The notes below the pieces were generated by a model. The model was not told the origin of the DNA. It worked only from the letters and a program-made list of their open reading frames with translations, and searched no databases. This document shows, piece after piece, positions 575-17,510 of a DNA stretch of 64,000 bases. How positions within the stretch are numbered: position 1 is the first letter of the stretch; each line of letters starts with the position of its first letter. The position numbers and the translations under genes are program-made. This stretch comes from an uncultured delta proteobacterium (GTDB lineage Bacteria > Desulfobacterota > RBG-13-43-22): positions 160,001 to 224,000 of the forward strand of contig CAWBOS010000013.1 of the NCBI GenBank assembly GCA_963790475.1. The letters run 5' to 3'.

Positions 575-2827
575 ATGCCTCGATTGACTGAACAGGAACA
601 ACAAGAGATTATCCGCTATATTGAGGCCGACAAACCCCTGCCGGACAAGTACCGATTCTTATTGTTTGAAGACAAACGCGAAGTGGAGTTGGTCTGGAAT
701 GGGAAGACTAATGAGGTCTGCAACATCGTGTTGCCGTTTCAGGTGATCGAGCAGGTGGACGAGCCGCGGGCCGAAAAGCCGGCCGATACGGCGCTACAAA
801 TGGGCCTCTTCGACTCCCGGGGGCGTCAGCTAAAGGGGTGGACAAACAAGCTCATCTGGGGGGACAACAAGCTTATTCTCTCCTCCCTGAAGAACGGCCC
901 CTTGCGTGAGGAGATTGAGAAACAGGGCGGCATCAAGGTGATGTCTATTGATCCCCCCTTTGACGTAGGTGCGGATTTCTCCATGGATATTGAGATCGGT
1001 GACGACACCTTCACCAAAAAGCCCAACATTCTTGAAGAGATCGCCTACCGTGACACCTGGGGCAAGGGTGTGGATTCCTTCATCGCTATGATTTATGAGC
1101 GGCTAACACTGATGCGAGATCTCCTGGCTGAAGATGGCAGTATTTATGTCCATTGTGATTGGCATATTGGGCACAGTATTAAACTTGTGTTAGATGAGGT
1201 TTTTGGTGCGATTAATTTCAGAAATCATATTTCCTGGAAAAGGAGCACTCCGAGGGGTAATGCGAAAAATAAATATCCTGAATTAACGGATTTCATTCTT
1301 TTTTATTCAAAGTCTGAGGACACCATTTGGAATGACCAGTATACTGATTATAGGCCAGAATACATTGAAAAATACTATTCATATGTTGATGAGAAGACAG
1401 GAAAGAAGTTTCAACCTACAAGTTTGCTTGGGCATTCCGGCGTTAACCCAATTTATGAGTGGCGAGGCATCAAAAGACCTTGGAGATACCCAATAAACCG
1501 GCTCGAAGAGTTAGATATTCAAGGAAAGATTTATTGGCCTGAAGGAGAAGGTATCCCCAGGTTAAAACGTTTTTTTGATGAACAAAAAGGGGTACCAGTT
1601 CAGTCATTATGGGATGATATTCCACCTGTTAATTCTCAAGCGCTCGAAGATACAAAATACGCGACTCAAAAGCCCGAAGCCCTACTCGAACGCATCATTA
1701 AAGGCTCTTCAAATGAAGGCGATCTCGTTGCTGACCCTTTCGGTGGTTCTGGAACCTTGGCAGCGGTGGCGGAGAAATTAGGCCGCAAGTGGATTGTAGC
1801 CGACCTTGGCAAGTTCGCCATCCACACGACGCGCAAGCGGTTGATCGGCGTCCAGCGGCAACTGAAAGCCGAGGGTAAAGACTACCGCGCTTTTGAAATC
1901 CTAAACCTGGGCAAGTACGAGCGCCAACATTACATCGGTATCAATCCGAACCTACGTCAGGCAGAACAACAAAAACAACTGGAAGAAAAGGAAGCCGCGT
2001 TTCTCGACCTGATTCTACGTGCCTACCGGGCCGAGAAGACCGAGGGTTTTGCCGCGTTCCACGGCAAAAAAGCTGGACGGTTGGTGGCGGTGGGACCGGT
2101 CAATCTGCCGGTAACACGCCTGTTCGTTGAAGAAATCATTTTGGAATGCCGCAAAAAACATATTACAAAAGTGGACCTTCTCGGTTTTGAGTTTGAAATG
2201 GGGCTGTTCCCCAATGTATTGGATGAAGCCAGGGCCAAGGGCATCGACATTTCGCCTAAGTATATCCCCGCTGATGTCTTCGACAAACGGGCTGTGGAAA
2301 AGAATCAGGTGGTCTTCCATGACGTGGCCGCCATTGAAGTCAAGCCGCATGTCAAAAAAAATAATGTGGCGGTGGAGCTGACAGACTTTTCGGTTTTTTA
2401 TTCCCAGGATTCCATCGCCGGCGCCGAGGCCACGCTTAAGGACAAGGCCAGCAAGATCGTGGTGGAGAAGGGCCAGATCATTAAATTGATTAAGGACGCG
2501 AAGGGCCTCGTGAAACGGGAGTATTTGACTAAGAAGTGGACTGATTGGATTGATTACTGGGCGGTGGATTTCAACTTCGAAAACAAGCGAGAGATTATCC
2601 GCGTACAGAACGAGGAAAACGGTGAGTGGGAGGAGCGTTGGACTGGAGACTACATCTTTGAAAACGAGTGGCAGTCCTTCCGTACCAAGAAAGACCGCTC
2701 GCTGGAAATGACCAGCGTCTTTCACGAATGCCCGCCCGGACGGCGCAAGCTGGCGGTGAAGGTGGTGGATATTTTCGGCAACGACACCATGACCATTGTC
2801 GAAATCTCTGTGGGAGGGAAGAAATAA
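575..2827 (+). CDS. mod: Type III restriction-modification DNA methyltransferase (Mod)
   Basis: NKLIWGDN, IDPPF (motif IV), YATQKPEALLERII and DPFGGSGT (motif I) in beta-class order. An AT-rich central TRD lies at about 1150-1660. The stop overlaps the res start (TAATG). Confidence 0.9.
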   Translation: MPRLTEQEQQEIIRYIEADKPLPDKYRFLLFEDKREVELVWNGKTNEVCNIVLPFQVIEQVDEPRAEKPADTALQMGLFDSRGRQLKGWTNKLIWGDNKLILSSLKNGPLREEIEKQGGIKVMSIDPPFDVGADFSMDIEIGDDTFTKKPNILEEIAYRDTWGKGVDSFIAMIYERLTLMRDLLAEDGSIYVHCDWHIGHSIKLVLDEVFGAINFRNHISWKRSTPRGNAKNKYPELTDFILFYSKSEDTIWNDQYTDYRPEYIEKYYSYVDEKTGKKFQPTSLLGHSGVNPIYEWRGIKRPWRYPINRLEELDIQGKIYWPEGEGIPRLKRFFDEQKGVPVQSLWDDIPPVNSQALEDTKYATQKPEALLERIIKGSSNEGDLVADPFGGSGTLAAVAEKLGRKWIVADLGKFAIHTTRKRLIGVQRQLKAEGKDYRAFEILNLGKYERQHYIGINPNLRQAEQQKQLEEKEAAFLDLILRAYRAEKTEGFAAFHGKKAGRLVAVGPVNLPVTRLFVEEIILECRKKHITKVDLLGFEFEMGLFPNVLDEARAKGIDISPKYIPADVFDKRAVEKNQVVFHDVAAIEVKPHVKKNNVAVELTDFSVFYSQDSIAGAEATLKDKASKIVVEKGQIIKLIKDAKGLVKREYLTKKWTDWIDYWAVDFNFENKREIIRVQNEENGEWEERWTGDYIFENEWQSFRTKKDRSLEMTSVFHECPPGRRKLAVKVVDIFGNDTMTIVEISVGGKK

Positions 2828-5508
2828 TGGCCTTGCATAAAGACTTTCCTGAATCCCCCTACGATATTCTTGACCCGGTCTTGCGTTGGTTTCCGGCCGA
2901 CGAATCGTTGCGCGAGACCACGATGGAAAAACTGATACCCCCGTTGGTGTCGCAACTACGCAATAAGGTGAAGGAATGGCGGGACAGCAGTTATGCCGGG
3001 GCCACGGATACCAGCAAGAGTTTGCTTAAATGGTGGTTTATTACCCCACACCTGCTGCCCAAGGCTGACGGCACCATGACCGAGTTTCAGTATTACTTTG
3101 CCCAGCGCGAGGCGCTGGAGACGATTATCTATCTTTATGATGTGGTTGGCGTCCAAGACAAGTTTGATCTCATGCGCTTTGACAGTTCCGGCGCGGTTTC
3201 GGCCGGAATGTTCGATGAAACCTGGCGACGTTTTGTGGTAAAAATGGCGACCGGCTCCGGCAAGACCAAGGTGTTGAGTCTTGTTCTGGCTTGGAGTTTC
3301 TATCATAAGCTTTATGAACCGGGGTCGGAGTTGGCTCGGAATTTTCTGGTAATCACTCCTAATATTATCGTCCTGGATCGCATCTATAAGGATTTTAAGG
3401 GCCTTGATATCTTTTTTAAAGACCCGGTTATTCCCGACAATGGCGTGGGCGGACGGAACTGGCGCGATGATTTTCAACTGACCCTGCACGTGCAGGACGA
3501 GGTGCGGATTACCCGTCCCACCGGTAATATCTTTTTAACCAACATTCACCGTGTTTATGCCGGGAATGATATTCCCCCTTCTCCTGATGACGAAGACCTC
3601 CGGGATTATTTCCTGGGGAAGCGTCCCAGCGGCGCAACTACCGATTCCAAAGTTGACTTGGGAATGATCGTGCGCGACGTTGATGAGCTGGTGGTCTTGA
3701 ACGACGAGGCCCATCACATCCATGACCCTCGCATGGCTTGGTTCAAATCCATCGAGGACATCCATAATCGATTGAAACAAAAAGGCGCGGCTCTCTCCCT
3801 GCAAGTGGACACTACCGCCACCCCAAAACACAATAACGGGGCAATCTTCGTCCAGACGGTGGCCGATTATCCATTGGTTGAAGCAATCTCGCAAAACGTG
3901 GTTAAACACCCGGTCCTGCCCGATGCCCCCAGCCGTGCCAAATTAGTGGAACGTCAGAGCGCCAAATTCACCGAGAAATACACAGATTACATCCACCTCG
4001 GGGTGATCGAGTGGCGCAAGACGTATACCGAGCATGAAAAACTGGGCAAGAAGGCCATCCTGTTCGTTATGACGGACGATACCCGCAATTGCGACGACGT
4101 GGCTGAATACCTTGAAAATAATTATCCCGATCTGAAAAACGCAGTCTTGGTCATTCATACTAAGACCAATGGTGAGATTTCCGAATCAACCTCGGGCAAG
4201 AGCAAGGAAGAGTTGGACAAACTTCGTGAGCAGGCGAACATTATTGATGAACTGGACAGTCCTTACAAGGCTATCATATCCGTGATGGTGCTCAAAGAGG
4301 GTTGGGACGTGCGCAACGTTACCACCATTGTGGGTTTGCGGGCCTATTCCGCCCAAAGCAATATTTTGCCCGAACAAACCCTTGGTCGCGGATTAAGAAA
4401 AATGTACCCCGGCAGCGTGGAAGAATACGTCAGCGTAGTCGGAACCAATGCCTTTATGGAATTTGTTGAATCGATCCAGGCCGAAGGGGTGGTCCTGGAC
4501 CACAAGCCTATGGGCGAGGGGACAGGCCCCAAAACCCCCCTGGTTGTGGAGGTTGATAGAGACAATATCAAAAAGGACATCGAGGCGCTGGATATCGAAA
4601 TTCCGGTGCTGTCCCCGCGGATCTATCGGGAATATAAGAACCTTAGCAGCCTGGACGTAAGCGCGATTGGGCACCAACGTGTCTTATACCTTCAATTCAG
4701 CGAAGAGGAGCAACGGGAGATCGTCTTTAAGGACATCACCACCGGGGAGGTATCCCACACAACAATTTTGGATACAGGAGGTGTTGCCGATTACCGCAGC
4801 GTTATCGGCTTCTTCGCCCAATCCATTATGAAAGAATTGCGGCTGGTAGGCGGTTATGACGTTCTATATGGAAAGGTCAAGGCGTTTATCCGGGATGATC
4901 TGTTCGACAGGGAAGTGGACCTCGAAAGCCCAAACACCTTGCGAAACCTGTCAGAGCCGGCAGCAACGATGACTCTGATTGGGACCTTTAAAAAAGCGAT
5001 CAATGCTCTCACAGTCCAAGACAAAGGGGACGCTGAAATCCGCGATACTATCAAACTAAGGCAGACGAGGCCCTTTGTGGCGAAGGAGCAAAGCTACCTT
5101 ATCCCGAAAAAAAGCGTTTTTAATCGTATTATCGGCGATAGCCATTTTGAATTGCTATTCGCCCGGTTCTTGGAAGACTGCGAAGATGTGATTTCCTACG
5201 CCAAGAATTATTTGGCTGTTCATTTCAAGCTGGACTACGTTAATGCGGCCGGTGATATTTCCACCTACTATCCGGATTTTTTAGTAAAGCTATCCGATAA
5301 TCGCATGGTCATTGTTGAAACCAAGGGGCAGGAAGAATTAGACGTACCCCAAAAAATGGACCGTTTGCGGCAATGGTGTGAGGATATCAACCGCGTCCAG
5401 TCCGATGTAAGATATGGCTTTGTTTATGTGGACCAGGAAAGCTTTGAGAGATTCAAGCCGGTCTCATTCAGGCAATTGGTTGAAGGCTTCAGGGAATACA
5501 AAAAATAA
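2827..5508 (+). CDS. res: Type III restriction endonuclease/helicase subunit (Res)
   Basis: ATG at 2827 is coupled to the mod stop. SF2 motifs MATGSGKT, NDEAHH, TATP, LKEGWD and QTLGRGLR are present, with a C-terminal PD-(D/E)xK nuclease (YPDFLV...IVETKG). Confidence 0.9.
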   Translation: MALHKDFPESPYDILDPVLRWFPADESLRETTMEKLIPPLVSQLRNKVKEWRDSSYAGATDTSKSLLKWWFITPHLLPKADGTMTEFQYYFAQREALETIIYLYDVVGVQDKFDLMRFDSSGAVSAGMFDETWRRFVVKMATGSGKTKVLSLVLAWSFYHKLYEPGSELARNFLVITPNIIVLDRIYKDFKGLDIFFKDPVIPDNGVGGRNWRDDFQLTLHVQDEVRITRPTGNIFLTNIHRVYAGNDIPPSPDDEDLRDYFLGKRPSGATTDSKVDLGMIVRDVDELVVLNDEAHHIHDPRMAWFKSIEDIHNRLKQKGAALSLQVDTTATPKHNNGAIFVQTVADYPLVEAISQNVVKHPVLPDAPSRAKLVERQSAKFTEKYTDYIHLGVIEWRKTYTEHEKLGKKAILFVMTDDTRNCDDVAEYLENNYPDLKNAVLVIHTKTNGEISESTSGKSKEELDKLREQANIIDELDSPYKAIISVMVLKEGWDVRNVTTIVGLRAYSAQSNILPEQTLGRGLRKMYPGSVEEYVSVVGTNAFMEFVESIQAEGVVLDHKPMGEGTGPKTPLVVEVDRDNIKKDIEALDIEIPVLSPRIYREYKNLSSLDVSAIGHQRVLYLQFSEEEQREIVFKDITTGEVSHTTILDTGGVADYRSVIGFFAQSIMKELRLVGGYDVLYGKVKAFIRDDLFDREVDLESPNTLRNLSEPAATMTLIGTFKKAINALTVQDKGDAEIRDTIKLRQTRPFVAKEQSYLIPKKSVFNRIIGDSHFELLFARFLEDCEDVISYAKNYLAVHFKLDYVNAAGDISTYYPDFLVKLSDNRMVIVETKGQEELDVPQKMDRLRQWCEDINRVQSDVRYGFVYVDQESFERFKPVSFRQLVEGFREYKK

Positions 5509-5998: not shown

Positions 5999-7138
5999 AT
6001 GACGAGCCTATATAGTGATATACAGAAGGCAGATATAACTTCAGATCATTTTAAGAGTCCCACCCCAACCCCACCCCGTTACTATCAGACGCGGTTACGA
6101 TTCACCTCCCATCTTGAAGGAAGTTTAGAAGCGCTCGGAAAGATTTTGAAACGGTTGGCCGGAATGGACCTCCCGGGGAGAGATCAGGTAGCCGCCTATC
6201 TTCGCCACTTAACTCACGGCAATCGCCGACCGAGAACCCTGTACAGTCGGTTTGGCACCCTCGTTCTTTTTCTGGGACTGATACGGGACACCGGCAAAGG
6301 CTTTGAAGCCATTACCCGAAGTGATGTAGAGGCCTTTATCGAGCGAGAGCAGGACCGGGGGATTAAGATAACGACGATCAGGACCAGGCTGGTGAGTGTG
6401 CAGGCCTTTCTCCGCTATCTGGTGGAGGAAGGGATCGTTTCTGGGGATATATTCCGCAGTCGGAGGATACGGTTGCAGTTACCGGAGCGGCTGCCGCGGG
6501 CCATGGATCCTGACGATCTGCAGAAGCTGCTTTCCGTTATTCATGATATCCGTGACCGAGCTTTGATCCTGGTCTTGTTGCGGACTGGCCTGCGGATCGG
6601 CGAGTTGCTTCAGACCAAGATGACCGACGTCCATCTCCAGGAGCGGAAGATAGAGATTTACGAAGGGGAGAAGAACCGCCTGGGGAGGGTGGTCTATCTC
6701 AGCGACGATGCAGTTATAGCCCTGCGGAAGTGGTTGAAGAAGAGGAATCCCGGAGAGGAGTACCTGTTCTATGGGAAGAACGTCGAGACTTTGTGTTACA
6801 GCACCGCCCGGATCATCTTTCTGCGATATATATCCAAAGCGGGATTAGAGGGCAAGGGATATTCCCTGCATACCCTGCGTCACACCTTTGCCACGGAGTT
6901 GCTCAACGCCGGCATGCGTCTGGAGTGCCTCCAGGTATTGCTGGGACACCGGAGCATCGAGGAGACGCGACGTTATGCCCGGTTGACCGATAAGACCCGG
7001 GAGGAGGAGTATTTTAAGGCCATGTCGAAGATCGAGAGGAGGAAGAGTCATGATCGATGCGATCCTGAACTGGCGGCGATTTTTGAAGCGAAGGAACTGT
7101 TCGCCCCATTGCCTGAAGAACTATCTGAACCTCATTAA
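5999..7138 (+). CDS. Tyrosine recombinase (XerC/D-like)
   Basis: Catalytic set present: GLRIGE, GEKNR, HTLRHTFAT, LLGH, TRRYA, with a SAM-like N-terminal domain. Confidence 0.9.
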   Translation: MTSLYSDIQKADITSDHFKSPTPTPPRYYQTRLRFTSHLEGSLEALGKILKRLAGMDLPGRDQVAAYLRHLTHGNRRPRTLYSRFGTLVLFLGLIRDTGKGFEAITRSDVEAFIEREQDRGIKITTIRTRLVSVQAFLRYLVEEGIVSGDIFRSRRIRLQLPERLPRAMDPDDLQKLLSVIHDIRDRALILVLLRTGLRIGELLQTKMTDVHLQERKIEIYEGEKNRLGRVVYLSDDAVIALRKWLKKRNPGEEYLFYGKNVETLCYSTARIIFLRYISKAGLEGKGYSLHTLRHTFATELLNAGMRLECLQVLLGHRSIEETRRYARLTDKTREEEYFKAMSKIERRKSHDRCDPELAAIFEAKELFAPLPEELSEPH

Positions 7139-7937
7139 ACACTTTGTCATCTGGTTGGATGTGCCGGTGGAGGAGGTTACCTCTGCGGTCGTCTCCCGCT
7201 ACATTGAGCATCTGATGAGGAAGAGACTGGCGCCCAAGACAGTCAACTGTCACTTAAACGGCATCCGCCAGTTCTACCATTATCTGCGGGAGGAAGAAGG
7301 TCTGACCATCACCAATCCCATCAGGAAGCATCACTTCCAGAAGATGTCCAGGCCCCTTCCCCGGCACCTGAGAGATGAACAGGTGGAGACCTTCTTCCAG
7401 GCCATCAAGGGGGCCCGCGACCGGGCCATGTTCATGCTTATGCTTAGATGCGGGTTACGGGTGGAAGAAGTCGCCCATCTCACCATAGGCGTCATCGACG
7501 TCAAGCGCAGGACCATCCTGGTGGAAGACGGCAAGGGTGGAAAAGACCGGGTCGTCTATATGAGTCATGATGCCCTTCAGGCCCTGACCGCCTATCTGAG
7601 GGTGAGGCCTCTATCCAGAGCCAGTAGGATCTTTCTGGCGGAAAAGGCTCCCTGTAAGGGACAGCCCATTTCCATTCGTGGCATTCAGAGGCGCATGGAA
7701 TATTATGGCCGCCAAGCGAAGCTCAAGGTGTCCTGTCATCATCTTCGACACACCATGGCCACCCAGCTGCTCAACGCTGATGCCGATCTCTGCACCATCC
7801 AGGATCTCTTGGGTCATAGCAATGTGAAAACCACGCAACGGTACTGCCGGATATCAAACCTGAAAGTGCAGAGAGACTACTTCAAGGCCATGGAGGTGAT
7901 CAGGCTACAAACGGCTGGCAACCCAAATAATCCTTGA
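7050..7937 (+). CDS. Second tyrosine recombinase (XerC/D-like)
   Basis: GLRVEE, GKGGKDR, HHLRHTMAT, LLGH, TQRY. It overlaps the first gene, with an AGGAGG upstream of the ATG. Confidence 0.9.
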   Translation: MIDAILNWRRFLKRRNCSPHCLKNYLNLIKHFVIWLDVPVEEVTSAVVSRYIEHLMRKRLAPKTVNCHLNGIRQFYHYLREEEGLTITNPIRKHHFQKMSRPLPRHLRDEQVETFFQAIKGARDRAMFMLMLRCGLRVEEVAHLTIGVIDVKRRTILVEDGKGGKDRVVYMSHDALQALTAYLRVRPLSRASRIFLAEKAPCKGQPISIRGIQRRMEYYGRQAKLKVSCHHLRHTMATQLLNADADLCTIQDLLGHSNVKTTQRYCRISNLKVQRDYFKAMEVIRLQTAGNPNNP

Positions 7938-8183: not shown

Positions 8184-9605
8184 ATGAGCATACGGGATAC
8201 CATGAAGAAGCTATTGGGTGGTAAGCCCGTTGATATCGGTGAGCTTAATAGGCGAACAACACGGGAATCTTTGCAGAAGGTTCCTATCCCCGTACCCAAA
8301 AACCCTCTTGAAGGGATTCACATCACTGATGAATTTAGAACAGTCGAGTCTTTGCTTGATGCTGGCTACCCAGTAGTCTTCGTCTCTGGCAATGCTGGCA
8401 CGGGAAAGTCAACATTGATCCATTATCTACGAACTGTCCTAAAGAAGAAGTTGGTAGTTGTAGCCCCAACTGGTGTGGCTGCCCTGAACGTCGGCGGCGT
8501 TACAATTCATTCATTTTTCCATCTCCCCCCGAAGATCCACGAAGACGAAGATATCAAACTCGTATATGACAGGAGGCTTTACCAGAAACTAGACTTGCTT
8601 ATTATCGATGAAGTCTCAATGGTCCGATGTGATCTCATGGACAGCATTGACAATTTCCTCAAAAAGAATAGGGCGAACAATGACCCCTTCGGTGGCGTTC
8701 AATTGCTACTGATTGGCGACCTCTTTCAATTGCCGCCTGTCGTTCCTAGGCAGGAAATGGTTATATTAAAAGAGAAGGGATACTTCAGCCCTTACTTCTT
8801 TAGTTCGTTTAGCCTGCAGAAAAGTTCCCTGGTTCCCATTGAGCTTACATTTGTCTATAGACAAGAGGACTCCTTTTTCGTATCTCTGCTGAATAGTTTG
8901 CGGATAGGGGAGAACGTAGATTTAGCAACTGCCGAGGTCAATTCCCGGTGTTATTGGAACGGAGATGTATCTACAGACATCACTCTGACTTGCACGAACA
9001 TAAGGGCTGACCAAATCAACATGGATGAATTGCACCAGATACTTGAAAGAGAGTATGCCTTCAAAGGCGAAATCAAAGGACGGTTCTCTCTTGAAGAAGA
9101 CAAACTGCCTTCCCCGCTTGACCTAAGGTTGAAAGTCGGTGCACGAGTTATGTTCACCAAGAACGACGATCACCGAAGGTGGGTCAATGGAACTCTCGGT
9201 ATCATACGACATATAGACCAAAAATCAATCGGCGTTGAACTTGTTACTGATCAGAAAGGGTCAAACTTTGATGTTCAAAGGGTTACATGGGAGACATACA
9301 AGTATGCCTACAGCCCCGAGAAGGACCAGATACTTGCGAAAAAAGTAGGCGAGTACACACAGTATCCCTTAATGCTGGCATGGGCCGTCACTATACACAA
9401 GAGTCAAGGCAAGACCCTGAAAAACGTCCTGGTTGATCTGGGCAATGGTGCATTTACTTCTGGCCAGGTCTACGTGGCGCTTAGTCGTTGTCGATCTATA
9501 AAAGACATCCGTCTCGCACGTCCACTTCGGAATACAGACGTGAAATGTGATCCTTTGATTAAAAGATTCTACCTAACTTTGGATGAAATGAAAAAGAGAA
9601 TGTGA
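8184..9605 (+). CDS. PIF1/RecD-like SF1B DNA helicase
   Basis: GNAGTGKS, APTGVAA, TIHSFF, IIDEVSM, GDLFQLPPV, YPLMLAWAVTIHKSQG, YVALSR. Confidence 0.9.
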   Translation: MSIRDTMKKLLGGKPVDIGELNRRTTRESLQKVPIPVPKNPLEGIHITDEFRTVESLLDAGYPVVFVSGNAGTGKSTLIHYLRTVLKKKLVVVAPTGVAALNVGGVTIHSFFHLPPKIHEDEDIKLVYDRRLYQKLDLLIIDEVSMVRCDLMDSIDNFLKKNRANNDPFGGVQLLLIGDLFQLPPVVPRQEMVILKEKGYFSPYFFSSFSLQKSSLVPIELTFVYRQEDSFFVSLLNSLRIGENVDLATAEVNSRCYWNGDVSTDITLTCTNIRADQINMDELHQILEREYAFKGEIKGRFSLEEDKLPSPLDLRLKVGARVMFTKNDDHRRWVNGTLGIIRHIDQKSIGVELVTDQKGSNFDVQRVTWETYKYAYSPEKDQILAKKVGEYTQYPLMLAWAVTIHKSQGKTLKNVLVDLGNGAFTSGQVYVALSRCRSIKDIRLARPLRNTDVKCDPLIKRFYLTLDEMKKRM

Positions 9606-9609
9606 TTTA

Positions 9610-10390
9610 ATGGAAAATTATTCAGACCACCTAATGCCCGAAGAGAAAGAACTTTTTGAAAAAAAGAAGGAATTAACAGTTCTTGAAGAAGAGTTGTTCC
9701 AGCAGGAGTTGGATTTGGCAACGACAAAGGCCGATCTTCTGGTATATGAAGGGAAGTATATTCGTATTGTTGGTAGCCTTTATGCAGAACTTGATGAGAT
9801 AGAGGCCCAAATATCTGAAGCAGAAGCAAACCTTGACCTTAATAACAAAGAGACTTTATTTAAAGCCAAAGAGGCCCGTCGAAAGGCACAAGAATCCCAC
9901 GAGGCTACCACATCTGCCATAATAGAAAAGGCACAAAAAAAATTCCGGCCATCAGATGAAATTAAAAAACTTTATCGTCAGGCGGCTAAAGCTATGCATC
10001 CGGATTTGTCAACAGACGAAAAGTCACACACTATACGAAAACAAATGATGGCTGAAGTAAACCTCGCTTACGAAGAAGGAAGCGAAGAAAAGCTGTGTGA
10101 AATTTTAAGACGGTGGGAAACTAGTCCGGATTCTGTTGAGGGGGAAGGGGTTGGAGCGGAGCTAATTAGAATAATCAGAAAAATTACTCAAATAAAGGAT
10201 CGATTAAAGGCTATTAAAGTTGAAATTTCGGATTTAGAGAAATCAGAATCTTTGGAAGTTAAAGGAAGAAATCAAAAAAGCAGAAAAAGAGGGAAGAGAT
10301 CTTCTTAAGGAAATGGCCGATAGACTATATGATCAAATACTGTCGGCAAGAGCCAGATTAAAAAATGTGAATATAAAAACCAGTGGTTAA
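9610..10390 (+). CDS. Coiled-coil J-domain (HPD) protein; apparent +1 frameshift near 10248
   Basis: KKLYRQAAKAMHPDL...MAEVNLAYEEG is a J-domain. The ORF track ends it at 10308. Removing one A near 10248 gives ...SDLWKLKEEIKKAEKEGRDLLKEMADRL...KTSG*, ending at TAA 10388-10390, which overlaps the next ATG (TAATG). Confidence 0.75.
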
Positions 10391-12045
10391 TGGTTAATGG
10401 AATGACTGATAATACTGAAAAGCAAACAAGTTTAATCTCCTTAAGCAAGTTAGAAATAGCAAAATATTCTCAAGGCTTAATTAAAAGGGGGATAGAGTTA
10501 ACTAAGGAGATAAATTTACAAGTCATAAAGAGCGCAAATGACTATTTTGACGTAGGGATAGGATGCTATGAAAAGAAAGATTTTGAGGGGGCTATTGCAA
10601 ATTTTACGAAATCGATTGCAATAGATGTTGATTTTTCTCAAGCCTACCTATATCGGGGGAAAGCTTTTTGTTATAGAACAAATAAAGAATGGAAAGCTGA
10701 ATACACAAATTTAATAGTCAAAGGAAGTTATGTTAAAGACGACAATGACCCTTTTGTTTTTAGTTCACGGCTAACTCACTTGGATACTTTCAATAATGTC
10801 TGTTTTTATTTACTCCAAGGGATTTGTTTTATGCAAGATATTTCCGGGGATGATAATGCACCTAATCGGCCTAATGGAGAAAAATTTGAAATATCCTCTG
10901 ATGATTTATTTTCTTATTTTGCAAAGCCAATAGTTCCTATGCGTGTTAAATCTGTCAATATTTTTTTGGCTTCTCCTGCAAAGATTGAAGGGAATTCTTT
11001 TGGTGAGATAAAAACGCCTGATACTCTTATCAAAATCAGATTGGGGCAGATAGATCGAAGACCATTCCGGTCTAAATATAGTTATAAGCCAAAAATGAAG
11101 GGATTATTTTGTTGTAGGATATTTGGGCCTATTAAGGACTATGAGTGTATTTGTGGCAAATACAATCTGATGAAGCACCGCGGAGTTGTCTGCGAAAAGT
11201 GTAGGGTTGAGGTCATTCAGTCCAAGGCCAGGCGACAGCGCATGGGACATATTAAGCTGACAATTCCAGTGGTCCACACTTGGTTTCTTAAATATCTCCC
11301 TTATCAAATTGACATACTTTTGGATATGCCAAGAGAGGAATTAGAAAAAATAATCTATTATAACTCATGGATTGTTCTTGACCCTCGTCAAACATCACTT
11401 AAGAGAAGAGAAGTGCTGGATAAAGAGGGATATAAACAGGTTATAAAGAATTATGGTTTTAATTCATGTGAAATGAGTTCGGGGGCTGAGGCAGTTAAAA
11501 GATTACTTGAAGAGTTAGATCTTAAAAAAACAACCGACCAAATACTATCAGACATTAATAAAACAAATTCAGAAATAAAAAAGACTTTTCTAAAGACAAG
11601 ATTGGAGACTATTAATTATTTCATTAGAACAGGAGTTAAACCGGAATGGATAATTCTTAACGTTTTGCCTATAATACCACCAGGTTATAGGCCGCTCTTC
11701 CCAGATAGTTTTGAAATAAGTCTCAATCATCATTACAAAGTTGTCATTAACCAGAATAATTATTTGAAGCGATTACTTGATCAAAATCTCCCTGAGGCAA
11801 TTATTACGATGGCGAAAAAAACCCTTCAGAGGTCTGTCGATGCTCTTTTTGAGAACGAGCAATTTGGAAAAGATCCAAGGGATTATGAACAAGCTATTTC
11901 TGATTTTGATACTTTTATGAGATTAGAACCCAACAGAGAAGAGCCGTATTTTTATCGAGGAGTATTTTTTTTAGAAAGAGGGAGGATTGATGAGGCGTTT
12001 AAAGATTTAAATCATATATCATCTTTTAGAAAGAAAGAAGATTGA
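10390..12045 (+). CDS. TPR protein with an inserted RNA polymerase beta' (RpoC) N-terminal/clamp domain
   Basis: TPR motifs at both ends. About 10900-11859 aligns by eye with RpoC residues ~1-310: LASP..I...SFGEIK.P, GLFC.RIFGP.KDYEC.CGKY...KHRGVVCEKC.VEV, RR.RMGHI.L, GAEAV, KPEW.IL.VLP..PP..RPL, NN.LKRLLD, LQ..VDAL. Confidence 0.9.
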   Translation: MVNGMTDNTEKQTSLISLSKLEIAKYSQGLIKRGIELTKEINLQVIKSANDYFDVGIGCYEKKDFEGAIANFTKSIAIDVDFSQAYLYRGKAFCYRTNKEWKAEYTNLIVKGSYVKDDNDPFVFSSRLTHLDTFNNVCFYLLQGICFMQDISGDDNAPNRPNGEKFEISSDDLFSYFAKPIVPMRVKSVNIFLASPAKIEGNSFGEIKTPDTLIKIRLGQIDRRPFRSKYSYKPKMKGLFCCRIFGPIKDYECICGKYNLMKHRGVVCEKCRVEVIQSKARRQRMGHIKLTIPVVHTWFLKYLPYQIDILLDMPREELEKIIYYNSWIVLDPRQTSLKRREVLDKEGYKQVIKNYGFNSCEMSSGAEAVKRLLEELDLKKTTDQILSDINKTNSEIKKTFLKTRLETINYFIRTGVKPEWIILNVLPIIPPGYRPLFPDSFEISLNHHYKVVINQNNYLKRLLDQNLPEAIITMAKKTLQRSVDALFENEQFGKDPRDYEQAISDFDTFMRLEPNREEPYFYRGVFFLERGRIDEAFKDLNHISSFRKKED

Positions 12046-12204: not shown

Positions 12205-13053
12205 ATGGAGTTTGTAGATTGTCGTAAATGCGGGTTTAAAAATCCTCTTCCTATCTATGAGATGATATGCGGTAATTGCGGATATCGTCTTTACCTTGGT
12301 CGAAATGCTCAATATGTAGAAAGGGAACTTACGCAAGGTACGCCCACGTGGCATGATTGGCGAAGAGAAGGAATAGGTGCGTCGGAAGCGCCTACTGCTA
12401 TGGGCGTGTCTAAGTTTATGTCTATTGAGAAGTTGGTAAAGATTAAGACCGGAAAGACGCCCGAACCGCCTTCAAATAAATATATGAGTCGAGGGAAAGA
12501 ACTGGAGAAACCTGCAAGGGAATTGTATATCAAAAAGACAGGCATAACCGTTCATCCGTCATGTCTTGAATCGCTTGACCGGGGATGGATGAGAGCAAGC
12601 CTGGACGGATGGTCAAAAGAAAACCATCTCGTAGTCGAAATCAAGTGTCCGCAGGGAGAGAAAGACCACTCGCAAGCACTTAGGGGAAAAGTTCCAGAGC
12701 ATTACTATCCACAACTTCAACACATTCTTGCGGTAACTGGCTTTTCAGAGATTGACTATTGGAGCTTTCGGAAAGGTAAGGGAGTCCTCCTGAAAGTTAA
12801 GAGGGATGAGAATTATATCCAAAAACTTATTTCGACTGAAGTGAAGATATGGCATAGAATTACATCGGATAAAAATTTTAATAGTGGCAGCAAAGTTGTT
12901 TTAACCTGCCCAAATCCAAGTTGTTCAAAAGGGCTGAAGGTCTCAACTGGTGGAGATTTACCAAGGAGGGTATTTGTCTGTATGCACTGCGGGATTGAAT
13001 TTGAATTATATGAGAGTCCTTGGGGTATCAAGCCTCGTATCAAATCTAATTAG
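12205..13053 (+). CDS. YqaJ / lambda-exonuclease-family PD-(D/E)xK nuclease with N- and C-terminal Zn ribbons
   Basis: QGTPTWHDWRREGIGASEA, RGKELEKPAR, ASLDG...VEIKCP and YYPQLQH. Cys clusters CRKC..CGNC (N-terminal) and CPNPSC..CMHC (C-terminal). Confidence 0.85.
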   Translation: MEFVDCRKCGFKNPLPIYEMICGNCGYRLYLGRNAQYVERELTQGTPTWHDWRREGIGASEAPTAMGVSKFMSIEKLVKIKTGKTPEPPSNKYMSRGKELEKPARELYIKKTGITVHPSCLESLDRGWMRASLDGWSKENHLVVEIKCPQGEKDHSQALRGKVPEHYYPQLQHILAVTGFSEIDYWSFRKGKGVLLKVKRDENYIQKLISTEVKIWHRITSDKNFNSGSKVVLTCPNPSCSKGLKVSTGGDLPRRVFVCMHCGIEFELYESPWGIKPRIKSN

Positions 13054-13895
13054 TGTCCATCCGGAAGTGGACTTTCCCATATCATATAGATAGGGTTGGG
13101 GTATTGAGCGTGGATATGAAAATCCTGGATAATCTGAGCTACGTTCCGATTGGTAGATGCATATACTGCGGAGATACTGAAGACCTGCAGAAAGAACATA
13201 TCCTCCCATTCGGTTTAGGGGGCACTACCGTTTTGCCAGATTCAACATGTAGAGAGTGCGCGAAAATTACAGGGCAGGTGGAGCAGAAGGTCCTCCGCGG
13301 TCCAATGTGGGGTCTACGGATTTACCGAGGACTAAAGTCCAGAACAAAACATGAAGAGGCTCCTAAATGTTACCCCCTTAAAATCATAAAGAACGGAGCG
13401 GAACAGTTAGTTGAACTGTCTATCAATGAATTCCCCATAATGTTGCATTTTCCGATTTTTGAACCGCCTGCATATCTGAATCCAAATGCCTATAAAAAAG
13501 GCATCTTGGTGAGCGGTGTTGTTACCGTTTCTTTCGGGCCACGCCCCGAAGAAGTTGCTCGGACATTAGGTGCCAAATCTATCTCTATTAGCCAAGACCA
13601 GGAACCAGTTGCATTTGCCCGCATGATAGCCAAAATAGCGTATTCTTGGGCGGCAGCAGAGGGCAAACTTGATCTTTTGCGAGGCGCTTCTCCAGTTGTC
13701 TCAGCTATTTTGGGCAAGACAGACGATATCGGTCGCTGGGTTGGTACGGTTACTGATCACATACAGAAGCATAACGGTTTGCTGCACCGTATACTGATTC
13801 ATGAAGATGACGACAGGCACCTTCTAATCGGGGAGGTCCACCTGTTCAGTGACTCTGAAACGCCCAAATATGGAGTAATCCTTGGTGAAATCTAA
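13053..13895 (+). CDS. HNH endonuclease-like protein (alternative start ATG 13116)
   Basis: CIYCG...KEHILP..LGG.....CRECA is a zinc-bound HNH N-terminus. The GTG overlaps the upstream stop. Confidence 0.75.
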   Translation: MSIRKWTFPYHIDRVGVLSVDMKILDNLSYVPIGRCIYCGDTEDLQKEHILPFGLGGTTVLPDSTCRECAKITGQVEQKVLRGPMWGLRIYRGLKSRTKHEEAPKCYPLKIIKNGAEQLVELSINEFPIMLHFPIFEPPAYLNPNAYKKGILVSGVVTVSFGPRPEEVARTLGAKSISISQDQEPVAFARMIAKIAYSWAAAEGKLDLLRGASPVVSAILGKTDDIGRWVGTVTDHIQKHNGLLHRILIHEDDDRHLLIGEVHLFSDSETPKYGVILGEI

Positions 13896-14575: not shown

Positions 14576-15186
14576 TTAATTTCTCAACCTTTCCTGTTTT
14601 TTCCATTTATAGTATTTCTCGTTTGCCAACCGCAACATATCAAAGTCTCCAGGACTATCCCCATAGGCATATATGTTTTTAAAATTTTCCAGATTGAAAT
14701 ATTCTTTTATCCTCTTTATTTTTTCCGCACCGTAACAGTTTTTTCCTGCTATTCTTCCTGTAATTCTCGATTCAATCACCTCCAACTCTGTGGCAATCAA
14801 ACCAAAACCATATTTTTTACACCAATGCTTTAAATAATCTTCGATTGAAGCTGAGACAATCACAATTTCATGTCCGGCGGCTTTATGAAACTGTAATCGT
14901 TCTATGGCTACCTTTCTTATTAAATTGGGCAATTTTTTATTAGAGAAGTGGATAGCCTGTTCCTCGAATAATTTTTTTTCCCATCCACCAAAATAATATC
15001 TGAGAACAGCCTCTTTAGCCTTCCAGTTTGGCAATACTTTGAGTTTATAGGCGATAACAATTGGGCTTAATAATAAAGAACCCATTAAAACCTAGGGTAG
15101 CCAACGGCAAACAGTATAAAATCAATGAAGCTGTCACGATAAGTGATTGTGCCGTCAAAGTCAAAAAGAACAAGCGTGTTTTTCAT
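14576..15186 (-). CDS. HAD-IB family hydrolase, frameshifted in a T run near 15088
   Basis: The N-terminus MKNTLVLFDFDGTIT (motif I) from 15186 stops after ...GYPRF*. It continues in the 14576-15085 frame with IVSAS, NCYGAEK and AYGDSPGD. Confidence 0.8.
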
Positions 15187-15539
15187 GGTTTTTGGAAACG
15201 GATCATTTTATATATGATTTGTCATTGAAAAAATTTGATATTAATTTTCTCGAAATTTCCTATTCTTTAATTAGAAAAAAGCCAATGAATTTAATAAACA
15301 GAAAGCATTTGCACCGAATTTTTTACCCTTGTGTGTGTGAAGCGAAAGGAGTCCCATTCCCTATTGACACCCCCCCTCACTTTTGGTCCCCCCCTACCCA
15401 CTGTGCTTTAACTGTGCAGTTGCCATTAATAACCAGCATGAAATGACATCACGTCTCAAAGGCTTTTCTTCCGCCATTTATCTTGAATTTATTGTAATTA
15501 TGAGTTATGATGAAATAAAAAGTGGGATATGGAAAATAC

Positions 15540-15584
15540 TTCGTAATCAGCAGGCCGCGGGTTCAAATCCCATCGCCGGCTCCA
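15540..15584 (+). other. 3' half of tRNA-Thr(CGT); probable integrative-element attachment site
   Basis: TTCGTAATCAGCAGGCCGCGGGTTCAAATCCCATCGCCGGCTCCA contains the anticodon loop, T-loop GGTTCAAATCC and CCA. There is no D-arm or 5' acceptor strand upstream. Confidence 0.75.
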
Positions 15585-15646
15585 CTTCAAATCAACTGGT
15601 TACGAATGAGTTGATCTATGGCCGCGTCGTGATCGGATGATCTGGG

Positions 15647-15764
15647 CAGGTCTCCATAAATATCCGATGTGCCCTCTAACTACTATCACCCAATTGCTCC
15701 TGCATGTACTTGGGATTCTGACCGGCCTCAATTTTCAGCTGGGGTTGGTATGCTTGAGATCGTG
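15647..15764 (-). pseudogene. Tyrosine integrase C-terminal relic
   Basis: HDLKHT / LKIEAGQNPKYMQEQLGDSS / DIYGDL across frameshifts matches HDLRHT...QLGHSS...DIYGHL. It sits next to the tRNA fragment. Confidence 0.65.
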
Positions 15765-16065
15765 AGATCTGTTTTTGGCAACTTTCGCCCGGCTCAAAGC
15801 CGGATAAAAAATCCTTTTCAGCATATAGGGTTGAAGATGGAAGCAGATAGGTAAACGCGGAAAAATAAAGTTTTAAGTAGTGGCATGTGGTTCTTTTCTC
15901 AAACGTCATTTTAAAATTTGGACGATTCTGGCTGATTTCTAATGAGAATCATTGGCAAAACATCCTAACAAGAATTCATATCCTATAATGTCCAAATACA
16001 CTTAACAAAACGGTATGGGTCCTCCTGGATTTTATCAGTGATTCCGCTTGAGGGGAAACCGTTGA

Positions 16066-16770
16066 GAGATGCCTCTACATAGCGGCGGAGCTTCTTCTTG
16101 GCCCGTTTGGTATCGAACTCCGGGTCACCCTCAATTTTCTTAATCAGCTTATAATAGCTTTCCACAGGCGCATAAGTTTCGAGAACGTCCAGAATAAATT
16201 TTTCCTGAATAGCCTGTTTCATGGTGTAACTGTGAAGAGGGCGGTGTTTGATTTTACCGCCCAGTTCATAACCCTCGCCGAAAATTTCAAGGGTCTTATT
16301 CTTTGGCGTGGCCGTAAAGGCAAAATAACTCGCATTAGACAGGAGCTTCCGGGCCTCCATGATGCGGTTGATTTTATCCTCTGTGGTTTAACCATCTTCT
16401 TCTGCCCCGGTTGTGGATAGTGCTGCGCTTACCGCCGCTGAGGTTTTGCCGCCCTGACTCGAATGGGCCTCATCGATGATGATAGCAAAGTTGTTCCCCC
16501 GTTGCTCGTTCCCGATTTCGTCGAGGATATAAGGGAACTTTTGGACCGTGGAGATAATGATTTTCTTGCCGCTTTTAATAAACCTGCGCAAATCTCCCGA
16601 ATGCTCGGCATGTCCAACCGTCGCCCCCACCTGGGCGAACTGCTTGATGGTATCACCGATCTGTTTGTCGAGGATCCGCCGGTCCGTAACGACGATGATC
16701 GAATCAAAGACGACCTTATCGTTTATAGTAAGGCCGATGAGCTGATGGGCGAGCCAGGCGATGGAACAAC
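16066..16770 (-). pseudogene. hsdR: Internal fragment of Type I restriction subunit R
   Basis: SIAWLAHQL, VVTDRRILDKQ, STVQKFP, IIDEAHSSQ, FAFTATPK and YTMKQAIQEKFILDVL. There is an in-frame TAA at 16388-16390, and both ends are missing. Confidence 0.85.
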
Positions 16771-16907
16771 TCCGGGCTGTGGCTTTTATCACCGGGCAAA
16801 CTCTTCGAGCAGTTGATAGCTCTTTCCAGATAACCTGTCTGGTGTCATCTTCTGCTACGGGACCGTGTTGAAATAAATCAGACATATTACAAAAGTCTCT
16901 GTCATTT

Positions 16908-17510
16908 TTACCGATCGTAGCCGGAACAAGGGATGCAGACATGTTTTTCGCCCAGAACCCGGAGATAGGCCTTGGCCGTCAGCTCCCCGCAAACGGCGCA
17001 GGGGGTGAACCCCATTATTTCGGGAAACCAATCACCTTCGTATTGTTTGACTTCACCGATGGTAAGGACATCAGACTCCGGGGCATCCCAGACGAGATTT
17101 ACCAGCTCTTCCTGCTCTTCAAGGGGAATGTCGTCGGGCATGATGCCCATCCCCCGTTTACGCATAAAGGCCGATTCGCCAATCTGTTTTTGCAACGTGG
17201 GTTTATAGCTGACCCGTACAGAGCGGTTGGTAGCCTTGTCAATGAGGGTGAAAGCAAGCTTGCCAAGGGGTTTTTTGTTGATGTTGCCCTTGCCGAAAGT
17301 GCAACCGGTGGCATACTGGACACCGTCGCCAAAGCACATCCCGCCATGGTCCTCCCCGATCTCTACGATACCGAAAAGCTGTGTGCCGCCGGAGCGCTTC
17401 ACGCCCAACGTCCGCAAAGCCGCCAGCCCGACACGCACACCCGCTACGCTGGCCCAGCACTTATGTCCGTGAAATTTCAATGCGTCCATCAAGATTACTT
17501 TGTCATCCAT
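16908..17510 (-). CDS. FmdE/FwdE family metal-binding protein
   Basis: FHGHKC, CFGDGVQ..TGCTFGKGN and a C-terminal CxxC...CxxC zinc finger. Confidence 0.85.
   Translation of the reverse strand: MDDKVILMDALKFHGHKCWASVAGVRVGLAALRTLGVKRSGGTQLFGIVEIGEDHGGMCFGDGVQYATGCTFGKGNINKKPLGKLAFTLIDKATNRSVRVSYKPTLQKQIGESAFMRKRGMGIMPDDIPLEEQEELVNLVWDAPESDVLTIGEVKQYEGDWFPEIMGFTPCAVCGELTAKAYLRVLGEKHVCIPCSGYDR

Follow-up and report, generated by a model that had tools for sequence, protein, structure and literature searches.

A remodelled RNA polymerase clamp in the payload of a candidate two-gene J-domain module from an uncultured Desulfobacterota bacterium

Class C/III J-domain proteins (JDPs), which are co-chaperones with a dedicated client-binding part, and the phage-encoded Rki (PMC3486835) tie a J domain to a binding domain that gives specificity. 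The locus described here follows the same logic. It lies in a 64,000-nucleotide stretch of DNA, hereafter the window, from an uncultured delta proteobacterium (Desulfobacterota, RBG-13-43-22; GenBank assembly GCA_963790475.1, contig CAWBOS010000013.1, positions 160,001 to 224,000 of the forward strand), in which a J-domain gene (9610..10390, + strand) is followed by a payload gene (10390..12045, + strand) whose 551-aa product carries a remodelled copy of the N-terminal clamp region of the RNA polymerase (RNAP) β′ subunit. Unlike in the class C/III JDPs, the J part and the binding part appear to be two translationally coupled polypeptides joined by a conserved leader, and the binding part is freely swapped from genome to genome. 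We propose that the payload is one subunit of a two-gene J-domain module and supplies a clamp-shaped binding module coupled to DnaK, a reading to which we give about an even chance.

The clamp copy shares with RpoC the homology to β′ residues ~3–314, the zinc-binding domain (ZBD) with four cysteines, the clamp core and the coiled-coil hairpin. It differs in being an accessory second copy that stops before the rudder, has no catalytic domains, is embedded in a tetratricopeptide repeat (TPR) protein, has a shortened lid and a zipper insertion, and has changed at 52 of 152 invariant positions on a branch ~90 times the median tip; for zipper, ZBD, lid, clamp helices and rudder we use what we take to be the accepted names and boundaries. 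An isolated β′ coiled-coil fragment reportedly binds sigma-70 region 2 in vitro, in work attributed to Arthur and Burgess and to Young and colleagues in 2001 and cited in PMC8321222. Clamp helices can therefore act as an autonomous binding module, whereas the copy carries changes of the kind reported to impair holoenzyme formation (R275Q, and replacements at E295 and A302). The stand-alone γ subunit of cyanobacteria (RpoC1, ~620 aa) has the same N-terminal clamp region (8syi_D, E 3.5e-70), but γ runs on through catalytic domains as a working RNAP subunit, whereas the copy ends at 314 and its contacts are changed.

Integrated decoys of plant NLR proteins are copies of host targets that are built into another protein, have diverged and may act as bait. 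Here, in contrast, there is no NLR/STAND NTPase, known effector or PADLOC match, and an immune role would be a proposal. In the literature listings, abstracts and passages covered, neither a stand-alone remodelled clamp nor a split J-domain module with a swappable partner was described. The module would be of a known kind, a J-domain co-chaperone with a specificity part, and its clamp-derived payload appears to be new and without precedent. The remodelled clamp separates what the fold needs (zinc site, core, coiled-coil seam) from polymerase work (sigma, NusG/RfaH, DNA), and the module to which it belongs, a J protein joined by a short leader to a freely exchanged partner, is found in many phyla. 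If the partner picks DnaK targets, bacteria would have a modular way to aim Hsp70 at specific proteins; if housekeeping-derived payloads are baits, the module would be a new kind of immune sensor.

The J-domain gene and its leader-tagged partners

Relatives of the J gene were found 99 times in genome contigs and at least 469 times in metagenomes. We examined 103 loci, 80 of them from metagenomes and the other 23 the nearest ones in genomes (within the more distant L061–L118, L097 alone was included). The J gene has a downstream gene on the same strand in 91 of the 103, and its stop is overlapped or abutted in 69 of these 91 pairs, with exactly 4 bp in 49. A leader with the core L-V-x6-L-A-x-R-S-x2-L-V-x-R-G-L starts the partner in 70 of the 91 pairs and is common to partners that carry unrelated payloads. 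The leader in the window (aa 1–48, 10390..10533, + strand; core LISLSKLEIAKYSQGLIKRGIEL) fits this motif at aa 15–37 and keeps the invariant arginine; phmmer matches it to the N-termini of the partners at L041, L048, L049, L060 and L040, and the leader profile finds the window protein at E 1.1e-8. GC content at third codon positions (GC3) is low in both the J gene and the payload gene (0.32 and 0.30, vs 0.39–0.69 in neighbouring genes). Because of this shared low GC3 and the TAATG overlap of stop and start, we conclude that J and payload form one unit, and the pair is a family across many phyla.

The Pfam DnaJ match of the J protein (aa 115–155) reaches 25.7 bits, just below the 27.8 cutoff, and HPD is conserved without exception in the 19 J relatives aligned; the family has no NCBIfam model, and its protein atlas names are generic only. 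The gene would recruit DnaK. As assembled, its reading frame stops at 10308. The family C-terminus is read in the +1 frame to the TAA at 10388–10390, which overlaps the payload ATG; it includes the predicted leader-binding helices that the assembled frame misses, and it was the second match in a profile search of the window's own genome. The frameshift lies at ~10247, where the assembly has one base more than a 200-nt contig from sequencing run X1, and it leaves an 82-bp gap between J and payload. The X1 contig, which puts the J gene in frame, is a single contig of depth 2.88. The extra base reflects a mistake in assembly or else a difference between strains, and since the X1 contig lacks it, some of the population at least probably has an intact pair.

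Modelling of a related pair supports docking of the leader on the J protein. With family alignments, the L048 J protein and the first 60 residues of its partner co-folded with a score of 0.76, vs 0.01 for the best of three controls. In a calibration that holds only roughly here, custom alignments having been used, 116 of 157 solved complexes scored that high, against 2 of 215 mismatched pairs. At least 55% of contacts recurred between runs, with partner pLDDT (predicted local distance difference test) of at least 65, and the predicted interface places leader residues 25–41 in a groove of J residues 48–59, 93–101 and 215–241.

What follows the leader varies widely. When 80 partners were classified by Pfam, 51 were repeat arrays (21 TPR, 15 Sel1, 8 LRR, 4 WG, 2 ankyrin and 1 LRR plus TPR), 10 were GAF/REC/GGDEF proteins, 4 were housekeeping pieces, 3 fell elsewhere (FGE-sulfatase, MFS, ADP-ribosylglycohydrolase) and 12 had no family. 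The four housekeeping pieces among these leader-tagged payloads are a sigma factor that scores best as RpoH (L041), LigA residues ~313–582 without the adenylation domain (L058:8756–9715), a family-4 uracil-DNA glycosylase (UDG) fused to an FGE-sulfatase domain (L057:1129–2793), and DnaK residues 381–513, the substrate-binding domain (L149:907–1440). The L041 sigma keeps all four coiled-coil contacts of region 2.2 (D403, Q406, E407 and N409), so that loss of partner contacts is not a rule of the family.

Two variant architectures were seen. At L041 (4564–7868), from an uncultured Syntrophaceae, the J region forms the C-terminal end of an open reading frame (ORF) of 847 aa that starts with an SF1 helicase, Mokosh MkoA-like or IGHMBP2-like, and is coupled to the sigma-32-like payload. 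Among distant J relatives (Pyrinomonadaceae and other Acidobacteriota), a YARHG protein with 3–4 repeats stands 5′ of J in 7 of 25 upstream ORFs (L062, L074, L080, L082, L089, L105 and L115), and a close downstream partner is often missing in these distant relatives.

The clamp copy: anatomy, residue changes and age

The payload reads, in order and all on the + strand, leader, TPR, linker, β′ copy, TPR. Its N arm (aa 49–101, 10534..10692) holds a single TPR plus the opening helix of the next (Pfam TPR_2/TPR_11 at aa 51–93); a 68-aa linker (aa 102–169, 10693..10896) with no family match and pLDDT below 50 leads to the copy of β′ residues ~3–314 (aa 170–494, 10897..11871), which ends at G313/K314, ahead of the rudder. 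The C arm (aa 495–551, 11872..12042) consists of TPR-like helices, with a weak Pfam TPR_9 match (aa 496–542, E 0.007) and an NCBIfam NlpI-type TPR match (aa 497–542, E 1e-6). The N arm is co-linear with the TPR payloads of L048 and L049; more broadly, aa 7–109 match TPR payloads, which phmmer matches again in the C arm. Given these matches on both arms, the window protein is a TPR payload whose array, of which ~3 repeats remain, is split by the β′ block. Motif reading would put the interruption inside the second TPR, after its first helix. A likeness of the linker (aa 109–165) to the β C-terminal tail was considered and rejected: co-linear tblastn alignments reached only E 0.9–8, a profile of 34 β tails found no match there, and the sole domain it reported scored below the best of 2000 shuffles.

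An initial annotation of this DNA, aligned by eye to E. coli RpoC, had placed an altered clamp at 11020–11860, which is payload aa 211–491. Pfam RNA_pol_Rpb1_1 (PF04997) matches aa 206–494 (E 8.9e-41), and in HMMER comparison with solved structures aa 186–494 align with E. coli β′ 17–314 (E 3e-86) with one insertion and one deletion. The NCBIfam rpoC model (TIGR02386) scores 303 bits vs a cutoff of 963.5, and the γ model 262 vs 1117. Since PF04997 is the only polymerase domain present, the homology ends at 314 and the rpoC score falls so far short, the copy cannot be part of an RNAP.

To describe the changes we numbered the copy by a HMMER alignment and a MAFFT alignment with E. coli K-12 rpoC, taken by accession, and compared it with 31 real β′ N-termini (E. 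coli and 30 genomes of the phylum, the host's own included). Positions conserved in at least 95% of real β′ were called invariant; these number 152 of 312 (β′ 3–314), and the copy keeps 100 and alters 52. Retention is high in the N-terminus (6 of 7, β′ 3–35) and the ZBD (22/24), intermediate at β′ 96–130 (15/22) and 131–250 (19/26), and lower in the clamp helices (22/36), the zipper (10/21) and the lid (5/14). Of the 52 changes, 34 fall in the zipper, lid and clamp helices (p=0.001 by permutation, p=0.0011 by Fisher's test), so the changes are clustered and not evenly spread.

The elements that the initial annotation had singled out were borne out in detail. The predicted zipper insertion of ~14 aa is exactly 14 (aa 214–227, 11029..11070), after I44 and flanked by Y46K and R47Y. 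In the ZBD equivalent (β′ 60–95, 11116..11223) all four zinc ligands, C70, C72, C85 and C88, are present as claimed, and the altered basic patch KYNLMKH amounts to K76N and R77L, M78 being the phylum consensus; G89R is a further change. The lid (aa 435–444, 11692..11721), said to be shortened, goes from PLVPLDGGRFATSD to PLFPDSFEIS, 10 residues vs 14. The statement that structural residues are kept agrees with the zinc ligands, with 55 of 63 invariant hydrophobics that stay hydrophobic, and with a predicted coiled-coil hairpin of pLDDT ~81–85 in the clamp helices (β′ 265–309 equivalent, 11722..11856). Six substitutions named there, R275Q, E295A, R271V, R278Y, R293T and I290A, are all present, alongside R270K, L285Q, N294M, R297K, M298T, E301R and A302S. 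The copy sides with the phylum consensus against E. coli at M78, V84, I93, S95, N286, E289, I292 and F307.

Several replaced residues have described roles in the polymerase. As the annotation had stated, published substitutions at two of these positions are sigma-defective: a passage of PMC8321222 lists R275Q, E295K and A302D as deficient in holoenzyme formation. In the sigma-32 open complex, the part of PMC10216364 that describes the sigma-2 interface names β′ R275, R278, R281, L282, L285, I291, E295 and M298; five of these eight are changed in the copy and R281, L282 and I291 are kept. The same source has zipper R47 touching spacer DNA phosphates, and substitution of I290 is described in a passage of PMC2871177 as abolishing RfaH action; the copy has Tyr at R47, the spacer DNA contact, and Ala at I290, the RfaH/NusG contact. 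The 31 real β′ compared show no variation at R275, R278, R293, E295, I290, R47 or Y46, and the copy has a different residue at each of these positions. On this comparison, the copy has lost most clamp contacts, namely those to sigma region 2, NusG/RfaH, spacer DNA and, through the lid, the hybrid. The suggested alteration of nucleic-acid-contacting surfaces is not uniform, the ZBD being the best-kept part. With R275Q and E295A in place and five of the eight sigma-32 interface positions altered, the copy is unlikely to hold sigma, and the housekeeping sigma in particular, in the way that core does, which makes an anti-sigma role the weaker reading.

On another contig the host has an ordinary rpoC of 1390 aa, to which the copy is 51% identical. 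In a maximum-likelihood tree the copy's branch measures 4.46 changes per site, vs a median tip of 0.051 (~90 times) and an E. coli branch of 0.59; so long a branch could not be placed. GC3 is 0.32 in the β′ block, 0.28 and 0.19 in the arms and 0.30 in the whole payload, vs 0.575 in the host rpoC. Because its GC3 matches its own arms and the J gene and not the host rpoC, we read the copy as an old, fast-evolving, Desulfobacterota-type clamp in a foreign AT-rich gene, and not as a recent duplicate. The variable N-terminal motif YFAKP is common to the copy and the host's family; rare shared residues between the two show no excess and do not support an origin from the host rpoC. That 551 codons have stayed open at GC 0.345 despite 4.46 changes per site suggests long-term selection on the payload protein.

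The payload is a singleton in a set of 5.8 billion proteins. In a phylum sample of 201 genomes, 198 had an rpoC match, and among the matches listed coverage of aa 1–551 occurred in the window's genome only; a search with the N arm against 1.84 billion representatives gave generic TPR matches only, and an IMG/VR scan gave no relative. Candidate stand-alone clamps among 'partial rpoC' matches were rejected: the 10 inspected of the 120 listed, picked mainly for being short with PF04997 alone or for lying on a long contig, were all ordinary β′ cut by contig ends or frameshifts, with intact clamp-helix invariants. Candidate phage or plasmid parallels were likewise discarded, the tblastn matches being to wrongly labelled entries of bacterial rpoC or to a phage β′ that is full-length at 1127 aa. 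DNA runs from three studies (freshwater sediment, groundwater) contain contigs nearly identical to parts of the gene, one piece with 6 differences in 161 nt; no RNA run was among the listed holders of the gene sequence. At L097 (3466–10252, Acidobacteriota), a real 1401-aa rpoC lies directly 5′ of a J gene with a REC-GGDEF payload, an arrangement that may mark a capture route for an rpoC piece or be a coincidence. Four genomes (G092, G055, G187 and G167) have open frames of ~2750–2818 aa over rpoC, apparently fused rpoB-rpoC.

Readings of the module

In the reading we favour, the ~45-aa leader would dock on the upstream J protein, whose stop overlaps the payload start. The J protein would couple the payload to DnaK, and the payload would give target specificity. 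The clamp block, in which zipper, ZBD, lid and clamp helices are present, the rudder is absent, and the zinc site, coiled-coil seam and most of the clamp core are kept, may then be a bait or adaptor for a protein that normally docks on the clamp, and would serve as TPR, Sel1 and LRR arrays do in sister modules.

A number of results weigh against this proposal. No second clamp payload was found: PF04997 occurs in none of the 80 partners and, in a leader-profile search of low power (13 matches), only in the window's own protein. The ten signalling-enzyme partners and the sigma factor fit a regulated client better than an adaptor. The co-folded pair is that of the relative L048, not the window's, and the AlphaFold2 model of the payload is poor (mean pLDDT 51), usable for the clamp core (aa ~310–430), the hairpin helices (442–464 and 469–487, pLDDT ~81–85) and the C arm only. 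The in-frame J form comes from one low-depth contig, and run X1 may be the source sample. The sigma interface shows no significant excess of changes (5/8, vs 12/32 for the other clamp-helix positions, p=0.25), and arginine loss is global, with 17 Arg in the copy vs 25–33 in real segments; taken together, these two results mean that the pattern needs only a loss of RNAP constraints.

Consensus-Arg columns are kept at 7 of 29 positions, with no excess of loss in the clamp helices (1/10 vs 6/19 elsewhere, p=0.37), and the fraction of F, Y, M, I, N and K residues (FYMINK) is raised to 0.37 vs 0.29, as expected for AT-rich DNA. At invariant positions G, A, R and P residues (GARP) are lost no more than others (kept 31/49, 28/40 and 41/63), and a proxy for core vs surface is not significant (hydrophobic 49/63 vs polar 42/62 identical or conservative, p=0.23). 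The view that the copy was selectively altered at its contact surfaces is thus upheld for the clustering in zipper, lid and clamp helices and not for the sigma face or the surface as such. The further step, that selection removed sigma binding, found no support in that form: it is not separable from relaxed constraint with AT pressure, considering the branch of 4.46, the global Arg loss and the two clamp-helix tests (p=0.37 and p=0.25).

The likeliest alternative is an immune decoy, in which the clamp block mimics the host RNAP clamp, has become harmless to the host by losing its sigma contacts, and catches phage proteins that attack RNAP, J and DnaK then signalling or resolving the capture within an anti-phage system; we regard it as possible but doubtful. 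The gene does sit in an accessory island, together with a type III restriction–modification (R-M) system, recombinases, a Dda/PIF1-like helicase, YqaJ and HNH genes, and the J module is absent from all 20 other host-family genomes searched. Sigma, UDG, ligase and DnaK are targets of phages, and pieces of all four occur among the other payloads. PADLOC matches lie within ~8 kb of 7 of 13 scanned J loci (11 of 108 neighbour ORFs), and at L041 the J region is fused to the MkoA-like helicase. This association with defence is weak: no control set accompanied the scan, which took in 13 of the 17 loci chosen and passed over L054, L138, L141 and L144. Moreover, PADLOC-DB 2.0 gave 0 families for J protein and payload at E up to 0.001, the helicase, YqaJ and HNH genes never accompany J in 80 genome loci, the majority of payloads are simple repeat arrays or enzymes of GGDEF type, no effector being recognisable in the pair, and the L041 sigma payload keeps its core-binding residues. 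Extended to the family, the same idea would make the J-leader-payload pairs a chaperone-coupled surveillance system whose swappable payloads are baits and whose captured invader proteins are handed to DnaK through the J subunit; the baits would be generic binders (TPR, Sel1, LRR) or built-in copies of phage-attacked host proteins (β′ clamp, sigma-32, LigA, UDG, DnaK substrate-binding domain). We consider this improbable; were it true, the clamp payload would be the first bacterial integrated RNAP decoy, disarmed towards the host sigma.

The payload could instead be a DnaK-gated client, passed to DnaK by leader and J protein and held inactive until stress titrates the chaperone, as for sigma-32; the clamp block, once released, would be a regulator acting on transcription factors. 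A sigma-32-like payload with intact core-binding residues would suit this, as would the 10 of 80 payloads with GAF/REC/GGDEF domains, which are outputs rather than binders, and the leader core, with its hydrophobics followed by R-G-L, may resemble a chaperone-binding segment. Two observations leave the client model with little probability: the co-fold sets the leader on the helical groove of J rather than free, and no output activity is obvious for the repeat arrays that make up 51 of the 80 payloads.

It is quite improbable that the protein is a functionless chimera, an rpoC fragment captured by chance in a TPR payload gene and whose changes are the decay of RNAP constraints under AT pressure. 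This would explain a singleton with global Arg depletion and FYMINK enrichment, the non-significant sigma-face and core/surface tests, and the frameshift of the assembled J gene. It has to be set against a 551-codon frame that is open at low GC after so many changes per site, the 100 invariants, four zinc ligands and 22 of 24 ZBD positions that are kept, the clustering of changes (p=0.001), an intact leader and the existence of an in-frame J variant.

A sigma-sequestering regulator, in which isolated clamp helices bind sigma region 2 away from the core, is highly improbable, for although the hairpin and R281, L282 and I291 are kept and an alternative sigma might have a co-adapted surface, R275Q is published as holoenzyme-defective, E295 and A302 are changed too, and the five replaced sigma-32 interface residues are all kept in the 31 real β′. 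The initial annotation had judged a non-toxic decoy a better fit than an anti-sigma factor; its case against the anti-sigma role is strengthened by these replacements, and the decoy itself stays doubtful for the reasons given above. The context that weighs most for function, the coupled J-domain partner and the family of leader-tagged payloads, had escaped it.

Genomic neighbourhood

The first 17 kb of the window form the accessory island. It opens with the type III R-M genes, Mod (575–2827) and Res (2668–5508), one end of which is TnsA-like endonuclease sequence. Next come two tyrosine recombinase genes that overlap (5999–7138 and 7050–7937) and the Dda/PIF1-like helicase (8184–9605), which ends 4 nt before the J gene. 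Downstream of the payload, a YqaJ/RecE-like exonuclease (12205–13053) has, by reading, Cys-rich zinc-ribbon-like ends, and its stop is overlapped by the start of an HNH_5 protein (13053–13895).

A five-gene cassette of helicase, J, clamp, YqaJ and HNH was considered and rejected, helicase, YqaJ and HNH being found with 0 of the 80 J genome loci (blastp, E up to 1e-5) and GC3 being different (0.39 and 0.46 for YqaJ and HNH vs 0.30 for the payload). YqaJ and HNH may form a nuclease pair of their own, with no tie to the J module. At the island edge, a truncated HAD hydrolase and two SWI2/SNF2-ResIII helicase fragments (14576–16942) look like decayed genes.

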